Positions 22,070 to 29,454 of a DNA stretch of 64,000 nt are shown here, piece by piece; the first letter of the stretch is position 1; each line of letters starts with the position of its first letter. Below the pieces are notes generated by a model. It did not search any database. It saw nothing but the letters and a program-made list of their open reading frames with translations, and was not told the DNA's origin. The translations under genes and the position numbers were made by a program. This DNA is from a virus: positions 1-64,000 of the IMG/VR virus record IMGVR_UViG_3300046673_000306; one strand, given 5' to 3'.

Positions 22070-22387
22070 GTGGATAGAACGGGACTGACCGACGCGCAGG
22101 TGCTCACCGCGCTCTACAATGCCAGCCGGGTCCAGGGCCTGGGCGTGCTCCAGGCGAGACCGGAGCCGATGACGGTCGAGGCCGCCGAGAAGCTGATCAA
22201 GGGGACCAGGCACGAGATCGGGCAGCCAGCAACCGGCGCCTACTTCGACTACCTCTACGGTCGGGTGATAAAGACCGACGTCTCCGAGAACCCGCTGGAC
22301 CTCTGGGGCTACGACCGGGACATGGGCCCGGGTGCCGGGGCCCGCGCGATCGAGGCGATGATGGACGGACTCAAGAGGCCCCGGTGA
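22070..22387 (+). CDS. conserved phage hypothetical protein
   Basis: VLTALYN..QGLG..YFDYLYGRVIK..YDRDMGPGA; GGGAGA RBS. Confidence 0.7.
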   Translation: MDRTGLTDAQVLTALYNASRVQGLGVLQARPEPMTVEAAEKLIKGTRHEIGQPATGAYFDYLYGRVIKTDVSENPLDLWGYDRDMGPGAGARAIEAMMDGLKRPR

Positions 22388-22776
22388 TCAAGCTCTGGGT
22401 CGACGACATCCGCCCCGCCCCCGAAGGATGGCACTGGGCCAAGACCGTGACCGAGGCGATCCGCGTGCTCGCCACCCAGAAGGTATCCGAGGTCTCGTTC
22501 GACCACGACATCAGCCACGACGTCCAGATCAACGGGGTCCACCGACCGTACCCGTGTGGGGAGACATTCGAGCCCGTGGCCTTCTACTTATTGTGCATGG
22601 CCATGGTCTGGGACCGCGACGGCGGGTCGACCTTGGACGCCGATTATCTCCCGAGCAGGGTCAACATACATTCGGCCAACGTCGGTCAGGCCGAGAACAT
22701 GAGGGAGATGCTGTGCGGGTTCTACCCCGTTACGGTAACGTTGGGGAAACCGTGCAACCGATTTGAGGGTAAATAG
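22384..22776 (+). CDS. cyclic-phosphate-processing receiver-like domain protein
   Basis: LWVDDIRPAPEGW..SFDHDI..IHSAN. Confidence 0.75.
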   Translation: MIKLWVDDIRPAPEGWHWAKTVTEAIRVLATQKVSEVSFDHDISHDVQINGVHRPYPCGETFEPVAFYLLCMAMVWDRDGGSTLDADYLPSRVNIHSANVGQAENMREMLCGFYPVTVTLGKPCNRFEGK

Positions 22777-22798: not shown

Positions 22799-23533
22799 GT
22801 GAGTATGGACAAGAAGAAGATCGAGACGTTCAATGAGCCAGGAGATGGGCCGGGCGATGGGACTCCGATGGTCCCCTCCGGGGACAAGACGATCCTTACC
22901 GTGAAGGCCCCGAACTTCCGGGTCGCCGAGTTCAAGATCGTGAACGAACCTGGGGTCCCGTTGGTTATCCATAAGTTCTCTGAGAAGGCTAAGAAACAGA
23001 TGATGGCCAACCAGAAAGAGGGCGCAGCGGCCAAGGGCAAGAAGAACCGGGAGCCCCGGGATTTTGATCGGGACTTCAACGGCGCTCGGCACATCTCAAC
23101 CCAGGGCTGGGACGGCATTTCCGCAGGAGCCTTCAGGGCGGGGATGATCTCGGCCTGCAAGACCTGCGGCGTGGTCATGACCAAAGCTAAGTTGGCGATC
23201 AGCATCCTCGCCGATGGCAGGGACAAAGAGGACGGGACTCCGCTGGTCCGTATCTATGGCAAGCCCGTCAAAGATGTACGACCGGCGCGCAATGATAATG
23301 GGTCCTGTGACCTGCGCGCGAGGCCCATGTACAATGATTGGCACGCGGTCCTCCGCGTTCGCTACGACGCGGACATGATGTCCCTGGAGACCGTGACCAA
23401 CCTTCTATACCGAACCGGGTTGCAAGTAGGGACCGGGGAGGGGCGCCCCGATTCAAAGAAGAGCGCCGGGTGCGGCTGGGGGACCTGGACCCCCGAGGGC
23501 AAGCCCAAGGAGCGGAAGGCTCTGATCGCATAA
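22799..23533 (+). CDS. stand-alone RAMP/Cas7-like RNA-binding protein
   Basis: PLVIH after the first strand, GISAGAFRAGMISA (compare IPGSSLKG), C-terminal Gly-rich loop VGTGEGRPDSKKSAGCGWGTW. Confidence 0.65.
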   Translation: MSMDKKKIETFNEPGDGPGDGTPMVPSGDKTILTVKAPNFRVAEFKIVNEPGVPLVIHKFSEKAKKQMMANQKEGAAAKGKKNREPRDFDRDFNGARHISTQGWDGISAGAFRAGMISACKTCGVVMTKAKLAISILADGRDKEDGTPLVRIYGKPVKDVRPARNDNGSCDLRARPMYNDWHAVLRVRYDADMMSLETVTNLLYRTGLQVGTGEGRPDSKKSAGCGWGTWTPEGKPKERKALIA

Positions 23534-23542
23534 GGAATCATC

Positions 23543-24055
23543 ATGCACAATAAGAAGATCACACACAGGTTGTCGTCTAAGAAGCGCAGCCTTGATCAGA
23601 AAAGGGAGAAACTGGTCAAGCACGAACTCGATCGGGTACAAAGAGATCATGGGGGAATTCTCTACCCAAAGGACGTTGTTGAAGCGGCGAGGCCAAAAAA
23701 ATCACCGTTGCATGATGAGTTCGAGTGGGACAACACGGTTGCTGCCGAGCGATGGAGAATGGAGCAAGCGCGCCACCTGATCCGCGTCTTCGTCAACGTC
23801 ATCGAGGAGGGGCACTCCGAGACCCGGGTCTACGTCGCCCTGAGTTCGGATCGTTCCGGTGGCGGTGGATATCGGGCGACCGTAAACGTCCTATCGAACA
23901 AGGGGCTTCGCGAAGTCATGCTCAGCGACGCCCTGGAGGATATGCGTAGCTTCAAGGCTAAGTACCTGGCCATCAAGGAATTGGCTGCCGTCTTCGCGGA
24001 GATGGATAAGGCCGAGGCCTTGATCGAAAAGAGTGTGGCTGGATCAGGGAAGTAA
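23543..24055 (+). CDS. conserved phage protein, partner of the RAMP-like gene
   Basis: LYPKDVVEAARPKKSPLHDEFEWDNTVAAERWRMEQARHLI. Confidence 0.75.
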   Translation: MHNKKITHRLSSKKRSLDQKREKLVKHELDRVQRDHGGILYPKDVVEAARPKKSPLHDEFEWDNTVAAERWRMEQARHLIRVFVNVIEEGHSETRVYVALSSDRSGGGGYRATVNVLSNKGLREVMLSDALEDMRSFKAKYLAIKELAAVFAEMDKAEALIEKSVAGSGK

Positions 24056-24073
24056 CCCAGTACCGTATATCAT

Positions 24074-24522
24074 GGCAGGCGAGGCGGGGCTTGGCCTGGA
24101 TTGTTATGGTGCGTCACGGTTCGGTAAGGTAGGTCTAGGCAGGCGTGGCTCGGCGTGGCTCGGCGTGTCCAGGAAAGGCGTAACGTGGTCCGGCGGGGTC
24201 CGGCATGGCAGGCGGGGTGGGGTCTGGATTGGTCTGGCTGGGTTGGGACTGGTCGGGTCCGGTAGGGCGAGGTTGGGCAGGCTAGGTATGTCGAGGTCGG
24301 GACTGGCGAGGCGAGGCCCGGCTTGTTCTGGTTCGGCAGGCACGGCATGTTGTGGTTGGGTCCGGAGAGGTGGGGCGCAGTGTGGCATGGCAGGCTTGGC
24401 CCGGCTTGTTCTGGTTCGGCGGCGCGGGGCGGGATGTGGCCCAGCGGGGCGGGATACGGCAGGCTAGGCGCGTTAAGGAAAGGTGCGGTGAGGCGGGAAC
24501 AGGGTTAGGTTAGGCTCGGTAA
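24074..24522 (+). ncRNA. (GGY-NN)n pentamer array in 7 GGCA-delimited units; putative guide RNAs
   Basis: GGCAGGC at 24074, 24138, 24207, 24276, 24335, 24389, 24458; strict 5-nt phase within units 1-6; 52 of 72 triplets are GGY. Confidence 0.8.
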
Positions 24523-24523
24523 T

Positions 24524-24559
24524 GGCTGGCGCGGTGCGATTGTTACCACCGCGCCAGCC
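24524..24559 (+). terminator. 13-bp hairpin closing the array
   Basis: GGCTGGCGCGGTG / CACCGCGCCAGCC. Confidence 0.7.
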
Positions 24560-24624
24560 TGAGCAAGAAAGTGATCTGATGAATAATATAAAGTCGAGTA
24601 ACTATCCCATCAAGACACGTAGCC

Positions 24625-24747
24625 TTGACAAGAAAGCATCCTCCTGTTATACTAATCATGCTACCGGATGAAGTGAGCATTTTCATTCTTAGGTCCTCGT
24701 GCGGAAACGCTCACGGTGCTTCCGGTAGCCACGAGGGCCTTCTTTTT
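24625..24747 (+). promoter_or_regulatory. promoter plus pseudoknot-type leader of tnpB1
   Basis: TTGACA-17-TATACT; GCTACCGGA/TCCGGTAGC crossing AGGTCCTCGTG/CACGAGGGCCT. Confidence 0.7.
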
Positions 24748-25890
24748 ATGTTGAAGACTTATTCGTTCAGGCTCTACCCGAACCACGCGCAGACTAAGAA
24801 TCTGGCGCAGCACTTCGGCGCGGCCCGCTGGATTTACAACCAATCCCTTGAGCGAAAGATCAAAGTCTACCAGGAGACGAAGAAGAGCCTGTCCTGGGTC
24901 GACCTCGCCAAGGAGATCACAGGTCTCAAGAAGGCCGCTGGTACGATGTGGCTCCAGGATGTTGCTCTCGCCCCGCTCCAGTCCTCTGTTCGGCACCTCG
25001 ACTCCTCCTTCAAGAGATTTTTCCAGGAGAAGAGAGGCTTCCCGGCGTTCAAGCGGAGGCGCGGCAGGCAGTCGTTCCAGTATCCCACCGGAGTCAAGGT
25101 GGATTTCCCGAAACACCTGCTCTACCTCCCCCGCATCGGATGGATTCGTTTTAGAGACCCAAGAGTGTTCTATGGCAAGATCGGCACCGTTACCGTCGTC
25201 AAGTCGTCTACCGGGAAGCACTACGCCCAGGTCCTGGTCGAGTTGCCTGGGGAAGTCATTGAGAAGAAGCCGCTGGAGCAGTCCAGGGCCGTTGGCGTCG
25301 ACGTTGGACTGACAACTTTCGCGACCTTCTCCGACGGGCGCAAGATAGCGAACCCGCGCTTCTTGAAGACCGCCCTGACGAAACTGCGCCGCGCGAACCG
25401 GCGTCTGAGCCGCAAGCAGAAGGGCTCCAATAACAGGAGCAAGTCGCGGTTGAAACTCGCGCATGTTCACGAGAAGATCGCGAACCGCAGAAAAGACTTC
25501 TTGCACAAGTTGACGAGCCAGATGACGAACGAGAACCAAGTCGACACCTGGGTAGTCGAGACGTTGAACGTGAAGGGCATGGGGAAGATGCGCAGCCTGT
25601 CTCGCGCCATCCACGATGCGGCCTGGTCGGAGTTTGTGCGCCAGCTCGCATACAAGAGCGAGTGGCGCGGTAAGAACCTGGTGAAGATCGGTCGCTTCAT
25701 GCCGTCGTCTAAGATGTGTTCCTGCGGAGCGATCAATGATAGTCTGCGCCTCGCCGACAGGACGTGGACGTGCGCCATGTGCGGCGCCACCCACGATAGA
25801 GACGTGCTGGCCGCGCAGAACATTCTGCGGTTCGGCTTTGATACCGAGGGTAACCCGGGAATTAACGCTTCTGGACAGGCGGTGCCTTAA
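24748..25890 (+). CDS. tnpB: TnpB RNA-guided nuclease (alternative in-frame start 24658)
   Basis: HTH YSFRLYPN, RuvC GVDVG / VETL / DRD, Zn ribbon CSCG..CAMC. Confidence 0.95.
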   Translation: MLKTYSFRLYPNHAQTKNLAQHFGAARWIYNQSLERKIKVYQETKKSLSWVDLAKEITGLKKAAGTMWLQDVALAPLQSSVRHLDSSFKRFFQEKRGFPAFKRRRGRQSFQYPTGVKVDFPKHLLYLPRIGWIRFRDPRVFYGKIGTVTVVKSSTGKHYAQVLVELPGEVIEKKPLEQSRAVGVDVGLTTFATFSDGRKIANPRFLKTALTKLRRANRRLSRKQKGSNNRSKSRLKLAHVHEKIANRRKDFLHKLTSQMTNENQVDTWVVETLNVKGMGKMRSLSRAIHDAAWSEFVRQLAYKSEWRGKNLVKIGRFMPSSKMCSCGAINDSLRLADRTWTCAMCGATHDRDVLAAQNILRFGFDTEGNPGINASGQAVP

Positions 25891-28267: not shown

Positions 28268-28503
28268 GGTACGGCATAGGTTGGTGGCGAGCACGATTCT
28301 TCTGGAAGCTCCACATCTTTATGGGGCACCTGATGGAGCCCTGCTGGCCGATGCGCGCCGCAGACTGGATTGACACTCACGTCCTTCACCGCTGGTTCCT
28401 GCTGAAGTTCTACGACACCTGGACGTTGCGTTTGCGCATCATTTCATACGGATGGTGGCGGGACGCCGTGTATGGGCCACGGCCCCAAGGAGTGCGGCCA
28501 TGA
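28264..28503 (+). CDS. Trp-rich hypothetical protein
   Basis: ATGA overlaps at both ends. Confidence 0.5.
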   Translation: MRYGIGWWRARFFWKLHIFMGHLMEPCWPMRAADWIDTHVLHRWFLLKFYDTWTLRLRIISYGWWRDAVYGPRPQGVRP

Positions 28504-28928
28504 TCTCCAAGGTCGAGAAGGTGTTGCGGAGCGACAAGTACAATCTGGCCGAAAGGCGCCTGGAGTCCGACCAGAGGAAGAACCGGAAGGTCGTGGCCAT
28601 GACTCAGGCAAGGATCGACGGCTGGCACGTCGGTCCTTCCTGGGGGCGCCTCTGGTTCACGGGACCGACGTCGACCGTGTTCGTCCGACTCCAGGACTTC
28701 CTCTTCGTCTCCTACGATCTGAGCCGCCTCCGCTTCGAGCCCTTCGCGATCAGCCCCAAGGGCGTGGTTCGGCACCTGGACCCGATGGCCCCGAGCCGCC
28801 CGGGCTACATCTGCGTCAGATCGCGGTCGTGCCCAGTCACCGGCTGCGTCGTCTATGCCATGCGCGTCGTCCACGACGACCGGCCCGAGGAGTACTGGCA
28901 GTTCGTGCTCGACCCGCTTGAGGGATGA
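28500..28928 (+). CDS. hypothetical protein
   Basis: AAGGAG RBS. Confidence 0.6.
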   Translation: MISKVEKVLRSDKYNLAERRLESDQRKNRKVVAMTQARIDGWHVGPSWGRLWFTGPTSTVFVRLQDFLFVSYDLSRLRFEPFAISPKGVVRHLDPMAPSRPGYICVRSRSCPVTGCVVYAMRVVHDDRPEEYWQFVLDPLEG

Positions 28929-28929
28929 C

Positions 28930-29454
28930 ATGGACAAGAACAAGAGACTTCTCCGGCTAAGGGATCGTTGCATTGAGCTTCTTCCAGCCGTAAGATTTTC
29001 CCAAGACTTCTTATCCTTGGTTGGCACCGTGCCCTGCGCCACAAAATCGGTTCTGTACAAGAAGGAGAGCGATGGGTTCTATGTGACCAAGCACAGAACT
29101 TGTTCCTGGTACGGATACAGGATGGACCGAGGTCTAGGAGCGCTGCTCTATGGCTTCTTTGATACGACCAAAGTGGAAGGCAGGGCACATAATGACGTCA
29201 GAAACCGACTGATCTTCATCATACTCCTGTGGGATTGGCTCAGGGGTAATCCCTGGCTAAAAACCTTTTCAGACAACCAGACTTTGGCTATCCAGTGCGA
29301 GAACGATCTGGCTTATTGGGAGCAGTGGAAGAGAGTCGTGGAGATCATGCACGAGGAGTTCCCGGACTTGTGGAAGTCTTACGCGTGCAGGGCCGGGAAG
29401 GTGAACTTTTTTTTCATTAAGAGGAGAGATCATGGACAAACGAGCGCAGCTTGA
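28930..29454 (+). CDS. hypothetical protein (lower GC)
   Basis: Operon packing. Confidence 0.6.
   Translation: MDKNKRLLRLRDRCIELLPAVRFSQDFLSLVGTVPCATKSVLYKKESDGFYVTKHRTCSWYGYRMDRGLGALLYGFFDTTKVEGRAHNDVRNRLIFIILLWDWLRGNPWLKTFSDNQTLAIQCENDLAYWEQWKRVVEIMHEEFPDLWKSYACRAGKVNFFFIKRRDHGQTSAA

Follow-up and report, generated by a model that had tools for sequence, protein, structure and literature searches.

A Probable Staggered Guide-RNA Array of a Phage-Borne VIPR System in a Peat Viral Contig

Overview of the locus

The stretch of DNA described here, referred to as the window, comprises 64,000 nucleotides (positions 1 to 64,000 of the IMG/VR virus record IMGVR_UViG_3300046673_000306) and is part of a contig of 106,545 bases. 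A tract of pentamers on its plus strand, located between a gene of 170 codons and a stable hairpin, is very probably the array of guide RNAs (vrRNAs) of a phage-borne VIPR system in the staggered layout. A sequence-only reading of the same DNA, made without database searches, had proposed that the variable dinucleotides (NN) of this tract are candidate gapped guides. That proposal is supported by membership of the locus in the VIPR family, as seen in the presence of a Vipr-like RAMP gene and a vap candidate, in the co-orientation of the GGY/NN array with them, and in the staggering of the array units.

VIPR was described in 2026 preprints as a CRISPR-related, RNA-guided DNA silencer (bioRxiv 10.64898/2026.04.26.720920, identical to PMC13142463) and has been proposed as an ancestor of CRISPR effectors. 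Its parts are Vipr, a minimal stand-alone RAMP protein with an RRM core whose gene lies outside CRISPR-cas loci; the accessory gene vap; and the vrRNAs, each a series of 9–16 YNNGG repeats with a constant GGY and a hypervariable NN. Types I–VII have been classified (bioRxiv 10.64898/2026.04.26.720920). According to the same preprint, the NN pair with double-stranded DNA in such a way that one base is skipped per unit, usually at the codon wobble position, a rule that its authors established by matching guides to pangenomes, by binding assays in vitro, and by silencing reporters with guides that had been reprogrammed. The interest of this very recent find lies in the small size of the RNA-guided DNA binder and in its code, which is non-contiguous. 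The locus in the window adds an example of such a system, the mechanism of which is already known and is not new. The phage is an uncultured one from peat, and its locus is well resolved: seven guides can be decoded, the genes for Vipr and the accessory protein are intact, and strains vary naturally at the unit borders.

The features of the locus are as follows.

22805–23533, plus strand: vipr, a stand-alone Cas7-like RAMP gene (242 amino acids from the ATG; the ORF opens with GTG at 22799)
23543–24055, plus strand: vap candidate, a conserved accessory gene of 170 amino acids (identified by synteny with vipr)
24074–24138, plus strand: vrRNA unit U1, GGCAG and 12 pentamers, the final G being the first G of U2
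24138–24207, plus strand: vrRNA unit U2, 13 NN, with a 10-nt tandem duplication inside (24142–24167)
24207–24276, plus strand: vrRNA unit U3, 13 NN
24276–24335, plus strand: vrRNA unit U4, 11 NN, the last four also present in U6
24335–24389, plus strand: vrRNA unit U5, 10 NN, uncovered in DNA run X6, in which a variant contig has other units before U6
24389–24458, plus strand: vrRNA unit U6, 13 NN
24458–24530, plus strand: vrRNA unit U7 and tail, 8 NN, followed by AACAGG as a degenerate junction word and by an eroded run of pentamers at the end
24524–24559, plus strand: hairpin closing the array, with a perfect stem of 13 bp, a 10-nt loop, and no T-run on its 3′ side

Architecture of the pentamer array

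Parsed in steps of five, the non-coding tract between 24074 and 24530 consists of 86 GG-Y-N-N pentamers on the plus strand. It starts 19 nt 3′ of the stop codon (24055) of the 170-codon gene, which bounds the array on one side, while the hairpin bounds it on the other. Of the 86 in-register pentamers, 82 have G at position 1, 73 have G at position 2, and 78 have C or T at position 3, with the complete GG kept in 70. The two positions that follow carry 0.04 and 0.03 bits of information (positions 4 and 5, respectively, over the 86 pentamers); the NN letters are thus essentially random, and the tract is not a decaying microsatellite. The periodicity of GG at five nucleotides is stronger in the array than anywhere else in the contig (power 2.48; contig median 0.068, 99th percentile 0.59), with the six best-scoring scan intervals all falling within 24001–24600. 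No second pentamer array is present in the 106,545 bases of the contig, the runner-up near 80.9 kb being ordinary sequence.

An open reading frame that crosses the array (24033–24467) was considered as a coding region and ruled out, since a period of five nucleotides is incompatible with a reading frame; the open frame is a by-product of composition. There are no Rfam matches in the window, CRISPR families included, nor were CRISPR repeats or cas genes found in it. Direct repeats of ~23–50 nt, which in CRISPR arrays alternate with unique spacers next to cas genes, are absent from the tract, in which the sole conserved word is the 7-nt GGCAGGC, and repeat finders applied to the array return pentamer families only. 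The guide information lies inside the repeats in the array of the window, whereas it lies between the repeats in CRISPR.

The word GGCAGGC occurs seven times, at 24074, 24138, 24207, 24276, 24335, 24389, and 24458. Parsing from each of these occurrences reproduces, letter for letter, all NN strings of U1–U7 that had been decoded in the sequence-only reading, and a recount gives 24, 26, 26, 22, 20, and 26 informative bases for U1–U6, in agreement with the range of 20–26 reported earlier. Each unit is composed of GGCAG and k pentamers, with the closing G doubling as the opening G of the unit that follows. The spacings of the units (64, 69, 69, 59, 54, and 69 nt) all have the form 5k + 4, that is, 4 mod 5 in six cases of six. 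The 1-nt slip that had been noticed after the eight NN of U7 is therefore present but not unique to that place, being a regular overlap of one base that is found at every unit border. Similarly, the lattice previously assigned to 24074–24501 is confirmed, although the pentamers go on to ~24530 and into the hairpin.

The observation that all the NN strings differ from each other, unlike those of a microsatellite, is confirmed but does not extend to their full independence. Units U4 and U6 share a near-duplicate segment of 29 nt (27 of 29 positions identical) with the NN block CC TT CT TC in both, and this block, together with the tandem duplication in U2, indicates that the strings are not wholly independent.

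Vipr protein

The protein encoded by vipr has no assigned Pfam, NCBIfam, or PADLOC family, and corresponds to phrog_4652, the function of which is unknown. It belongs to a large clade, with 2721 homologues at E ≤ 1e-5, reaching the genomes of cyanophages and of Mycobacterium and Gordonia phages. An AlphaFold2 model built on an alignment of 40 sequences has a pLDDT of 82.2 and a pTM of 0.76. A Foldseek search of the PDB with this model gave 47 matches at E ≤ 0.001. Every match listed is a subunit from a class 1 CRISPR effector complex (Csm, Cmr, type VII, Cascade, or Cas7-11); the best among the matches listed is 6xn3_F (E 1.4e-5), and Csm3 from S. epidermidis (5yjd_B) is listed as well. No cas families were found among the 20 ORFs neighboring vipr.

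The relationship to characterized Vipr proteins was traced through Shigella phage Sf18, in which gp17 adjoins the pentamer arrays of that phage. Comparison of the family alignment of the window protein (A1) with Sf18 gp17 in hhalign gave a probability of 90% and an E value of 1.7e-6 over 172 columns, with 21% identity. In turn, Sf18 gp17 is 99% identical to the phiSUSP1 protein encoded at 28477–29061, which is probably the published Vipr, as judged from the fit of its residues H17, E71, M72, R138, C173, D177, W178, and R179 to the published numbering rather than from comparison with the query X1U2U4 of that paper. In the structural work, Vipr forms a helical filament with one protomer per repeat, and the residues holding G1, G2, and Y3 are named (bioRxiv 10.64898/2026.04.26.720927). 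Of the five guanine-contact residues named, four are kept in the hhalign alignment. H17, R138, and R179 correspond to H58, R175, and R216 of the window Vipr, and the position of D177 is occupied by E214, a conservative replacement, while M72 of the pyrimidine pocket is kept as M116. The fifth guanine-contact residue, W178 of the reference G-loop, is replaced by G215, and for this reason recognition of GG by the window Vipr may differ in detail. In VIPR systems, the GGY bases are held by thumb residues and a glycine-rich loop; in the window protein, residues 207–228 form a glycine-rich region, with pLDDT below 50 at 215–224. The profile link to the SUSP1-type Vipr indicates that the locus in the window is a diverged but real VIPR system.

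The nature of the protein also bears on another interpretation of the array. One protein that recognizes RNA triplets spaced 5 nt apart is TRAP, the trp RNA-binding attenuation protein, which forms an 11–13-mer ring. The pentamer tract could by analogy be a scaffold or sponge RNA wrapping an oligomeric protein, with the NN as mere spacers, and the number of pentamers per unit (10–13) would indeed approximate one turn of such a ring. This interpretation is highly improbable, since the adjoining gene encodes a Cas7-like RAMP with homology to the SUSP1-type Vipr, and none of the 20 neighboring ORFs was noted as TRAP-like. In addition, Vipr assembles into a helical filament and not into a ring (bioRxiv 10.64898/2026.04.26.720927), and reprogrammed NN set the target of Vipr (bioRxiv 10.64898/2026.04.26.720920). 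Given the VIPR preprint and the RAMP neighbor, a TRAP-like RNA was dropped as a candidate, as were a type III toxin-antitoxin RNA and an R-loop or G-quadruplex origin.

Accessory gene and terminal hairpin

The gene that follows vipr is the vap candidate. Among 58 loci from prokaryote genomes, a homologue of this gene is found beside a vipr homologue in 50, and in loci containing both genes it lies downstream of vipr on the same strand in 67 of 69. The protein corresponds to phrog_15946, of unknown function, and its AlphaFold2 model has a pLDDT of 85. A Foldseek search with this model found nothing at E ≤ 0.001, only weak matches to winged-helix regulators at E ≥ 0.5, and with VIA-align the match was limited to a C-terminal helix pair with Z ≤ 7.5; no recognizable DNA-binding fold was found in the protein by these two methods.

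The hairpin at the end of the array folds with an energy of −34.2 kcal/mol (z −3.46), and none of 200 shuffled sequences was equally stable. It was not called by a simple terminator scan. DNA run X4 shows eight differences from the window at 24537–24546, all of them in the loop, with the stem unchanged, and the stem is under constraint. Outside the window, the word forming the stem was seen only in Cyanophage Cy-LDV1, just upstream of its vipr.

Related loci

Searches for a close relative of the window locus found none, the result being one locus at 35% identity. A blastn search with the array found pentamer tracts resembling it in Gordonia phage Ecliptus and in Shigella phages Sf17, Sf18, Sf19, and KPS64, in each case within gaps that carry no annotation. 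A strict pattern (eight GGYNN followed by GGY) matched at least 137 stretches in viral contigs, and 29 of these 137 loci also have, in their flanks, a homologue of the Vipr clade of the window detectable by tblastn. The lengths of the arrays vary widely among the relatives.

The association of arrays with vipr is seen in the 58 genome loci with a vipr homologue. Strict GGYNN runs (at least five) are present in 41 of them, in every case on the vipr strand, with none on the opposite strand in any of the 58; the 17 loci lacking a strict run include short ones and may hold degenerate arrays. The phase of the units is likewise shared. Spacings of 30–100 nt between GGCAGG[C/T] words were counted on the 51 locus strands that have three or more of them, and 244 of 299 are 4 mod 5. 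Another 37 are 3 mod 5, several of which look like two units, and the remaining classes contain 9, 4, and 5. Pentamers in a simple lattice would yield 0 mod 5, hence the 4-mod-5 phase belongs to the system itself and does not stem from the choice of loci.

These data are also relevant to the possibility that the tract acts at the level of DNA, as a packaging site, a replication origin, or a region forming G-quadruplexes or R-loops. G makes up 0.479 of the bases of the array (48%), and the GC skew is 0.211 at 24001–25000, so that one strand is strongly skewed toward G; runs of GGNNN might also form two-tier quadruplexes. The tie of the arrays to the strand and position of vipr (41 of 41 array loci among the 58) and the conserved one-base phasing of the units speak against a DNA-level element, and in the reference system such arrays are transcribed and bound by Vipr (bioRxiv 10.64898/2026.04.26.720920), leaving very little credence for it.

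The Vipr of Cyanophage Cy-LDV1 is 52% identical to that of the window. The order of the elements in this phage is vipr, array, vap, and a further array, a layout shared with the window, with GGCAGGC junctions as in the window and with g33 in the place of the vap candidate. The Cy-LDV1 VIPR locus (L141, BK059895.1, 2483–4080), in which g34 is vipr and g33 is vap, has all its genes annotated as hypothetical and is flanked by a cI-like repressor region on one side and an excisionase gene on the other. Homologues of the vipr clade with 32–34% identity are present in 25 Mycobacterium and five Gordonia phage records, again annotated as hypothetical, for example in NC_051648.1 (37448–37954) and MW534375.1 (10421–10930). 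In Gordonia phage Ecliptus (L002, 1860–2720), the pentamer array that comes after gene 19, in the tail-gene region, is without annotation. The SUSP1-type arrays of Sf18 (L003, 2373–2720 and 3829–4187) also lack annotation; a TTGACA-N17-TATACT promoter precedes two pentamer tracts, each bordered by an A/T-rich element that recurs, and a further gap of 358 nt follows gp16.

Comparison with published VIPR and CRISPR systems

The closest published counterpart of the window locus is found in the staggered arrays, in which neighboring vrRNAs overlap by 1 nt (legend to fig. S18 in bioRxiv 10.64898/2026.04.26.720920). Common features are a stand-alone RAMP with an accessory gene and a co-oriented GGY/NN array, carried by a phage, as well as the overlap of adjacent guides by one base and the absence of a self-target. 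The number of repeats per guide in U1–U6 (10–13) is within the published range of 9–16, with only U7 having as few as 8 NN. The GGCAGG[C/T] junction and the 5k + 4 spacing are features of the window that are absent from the Results, the Discussion, and the legends to figs. S17–S22 of the preprint. The window array also differs in having no conserved structured 3′ tail between its units.

The type II VIPR of Escherichia phage SUSP1 has a homologous Vipr and the same GGY/NN guide code as the window, although the two Vipr proteins are only 21% identical and differ at the position of W178, which is glycine in the window. The SUSP1-type vrRNAs are separate RNAs of ~100 nt, each with a structured 3′ tail, and have their own promoter in Sf18. 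By contrast, the units of the window abut each other, are tail-less, and directly follow the genes of the operon. The backbones of class 1 CRISPR-Cas complexes (Cas7, Csm3, and Cmr4) share the RAMP fold with the window Vipr, and in both class 1 CRISPR-Cas and VIPR, as far as the latter is covered by the preprints cited above, one protomer occupies a fixed step of the guide with bases flipped out at regular intervals. The step is 6 nt with 5 informative bases in class 1 CRISPR-Cas, and 5 nt with 2 informative bases in VIPR.

On the basis of experiments with other members of the family, a mode of action can be outlined for the locus in the window. The operon transcript would be cut at the GGCAG junctions into vrRNAs of ~55–70 nt, and each pentamer would be bound by a single Vipr protomer, with its GGY sequestered. 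The exposed NN would then pair with the duplex DNA of a rival phage or a satellite, leaving out each third base, in most cases the wobble one, and binding of the Vipr–guide complex would be expected to silence transcription of the target.

Strain variation and RNA libraries

The stretch containing the array is present in many peat metagenome runs, and contigs from four runs were compared with the window. In DNA run X6, contigs are identical to the window over U1–U4, and a contig of 320 nt matches it only from the start of U6 (24389) onward, while the 94 nt that precede this point consist of other GGYNN units. The content of the array therefore differs between co-occurring strains at a unit border. 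In record 7 of run X4, a DNA contig of 377 nt matches only 24352–24387 (36 nt of U5) with five differences, and its flanks on both sides are not array-like; this may reflect either a piece of some other array or a similarity that arose by chance in G-rich sequence.

The start of homology in run X6 exactly at the first base of U6, the 29-nt block shared by U4 and U6, and the variation in array length hint at a way in which guides might be renewed. We can speculate, with considerable reservation, that VIPR arrays punctuated by GGCAGG exchange or duplicate whole units at the one-base-overlap junctions. If true, this would represent a cassette-like turnover of guides in a phage population, resembling that of CRISPR spacers yet proceeding without Cas1. 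The locus offers material on the origin and turnover of guides, as well as on the rivals fought by peat phages.

Two metatranscriptome libraries each contain one contig identical to the window, covering 24237–24497 in the array and 23419–23588 at the junction of vipr and vap. These contigs are compatible with transcription, with no indication of strand or processed ends, and do not amount to proof of it because carry-over of DNA is possible. Most of the operon has no cover in the RNA libraries, which is uninformative.

Search for targets

Targets were sought by scoring each position of both strands for the number of informative bases matched, a procedure also used in a later VIPR preprint. On the contig itself, no guide exceeds 50 controls of shuffled order with skips of 0–3 nt, in accord with the absence of a self-target by eye in the earlier reading. 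With a 1-nt skip, the best scores on the contig are 15–18 matched bases (12 of 16 for U7), none reaching 80%. The published VIPR systems have no self-target either (bioRxiv 10.64898/2026.04.26.720920). In 707 kb of related loci, no guide scored above 20 shuffles.

Larger collections were scanned with exact patterns only, 9–12 NN in length, derived from guides U1, U3, U4, and U5. No exact matches were found for all 12 NN of U1 in metagenome contigs, nor for NN 2–11 of U1 or NN 3–12 of U3 in viral contigs. For NN 1–9 of U5 with a 1-nt skip, three exact matches were found in viral contigs, with the tenth NN unmatched, while the controls with shuffled order and with a 2-nt skip gave none. In all three matches, the skipped base falls on the wobble position. 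They lie in three unrelated but plausible genes: a tail-fiber gene (phrog_4492), a gene next to a Dit gene, and a small ORF. None of the other guides scored above 100 shuffles against the whole of the three records. By a rough estimate, a collection of about that size would contain ~1–2 chance matches to a pattern with 18 fixed bases. The three matches are treated as candidates at chance level, since the genes are unrelated, the tenth NN is unmatched, and no other guide matches the same records. A smaller, bolder reading would have U5 aimed at genes of the tail-fiber region of rival phages.

For NN 1–10 of U4, eight stretches in metagenome contigs match exactly. They represent two distinct sequences, one of which is present in seven near-identical copies; the gene of the second is, as judged from its translated motif, presumably that of malic enzyme. 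These matches were rejected as targets and read as chance, as the skipped base falls on codon position 1 in both sequences and the eleventh NN is unmatched.

The sequence-only reading had also suggested that the strings be read as NN-x-NN-x, skipping wobble positions, and be compared at several spacings with shuffled controls. On the contig itself, none of the spacings of 0–3 nt did better than shuffled strings, and for U5 the spacing of 1 nt gave three exact matches in viral contigs, compared to none in either control. The placement of the gaps on wobble positions holds for those three matches (exact over nine NN, in unrelated genes) and fails for those of U4, where codon position 1 is skipped. 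As three matches of U5 are too few, the spacing rule is taken here from the VIPR family, and the NN-x-NN-x reading with its skipped wobble base, which would apply to the window by that analogy, matches the published rule for vrRNAs.

The lack of targets raises the question of whether the array is a relic, or similar to an orphan one, its guides matching nothing at present and being retained by drift or as a decoy for the Vipr of a rival phage. Besides the scans, such a state could be reflected in the degeneration of U7 and the terminal tract and in the duplications within U2 and between U4 and U6. Solo vrRNAs that redirect Vipr to decoy sites have been described, and those carried by phages are predicted to act against the VIPR of rivals (10.64898/2026.10.15.759431). 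This explanation is nonetheless improbable. Both vipr and vap are intact and conserved beside the array, GG is kept in 70 of the 86 pentamers, and strains differ by whole units, as would befit a live array; moreover, the target search is itself a weak test, as it needs exact matches. A live array of guides is accordingly the preferred interpretation.

Adjacent genes

Just upstream of vipr, the gene at 22384–22776 encodes a protein with a cREC_REC domain (PF20274, E 3.9e-18; phrog_1479), which is the receiver domain of conflict systems that process cyclic phosphates. On the other side of the locus, 65 nt after the hairpin of the array, begins the region of a TnpB gene (IS605 OrfB/Cas12f-like, 24625–25890, with a likely ATG start at 24748). 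Homologues of this TnpB have a maximum identity of 46% across 201 genomes of one phylum, which is uninformative on the host, and no match was found in five genomes with vipr homologues. A near-consensus promoter, TTGACA-17-TATACT (11 of 12 positions), is located at 24625–24653, and the leader that follows is rich in hairpins, with a terminator-like stem and a T-run just before the ATG. Two distinct RNA-guided systems, the VIPR array and TnpB, are thus adjacent in the window.
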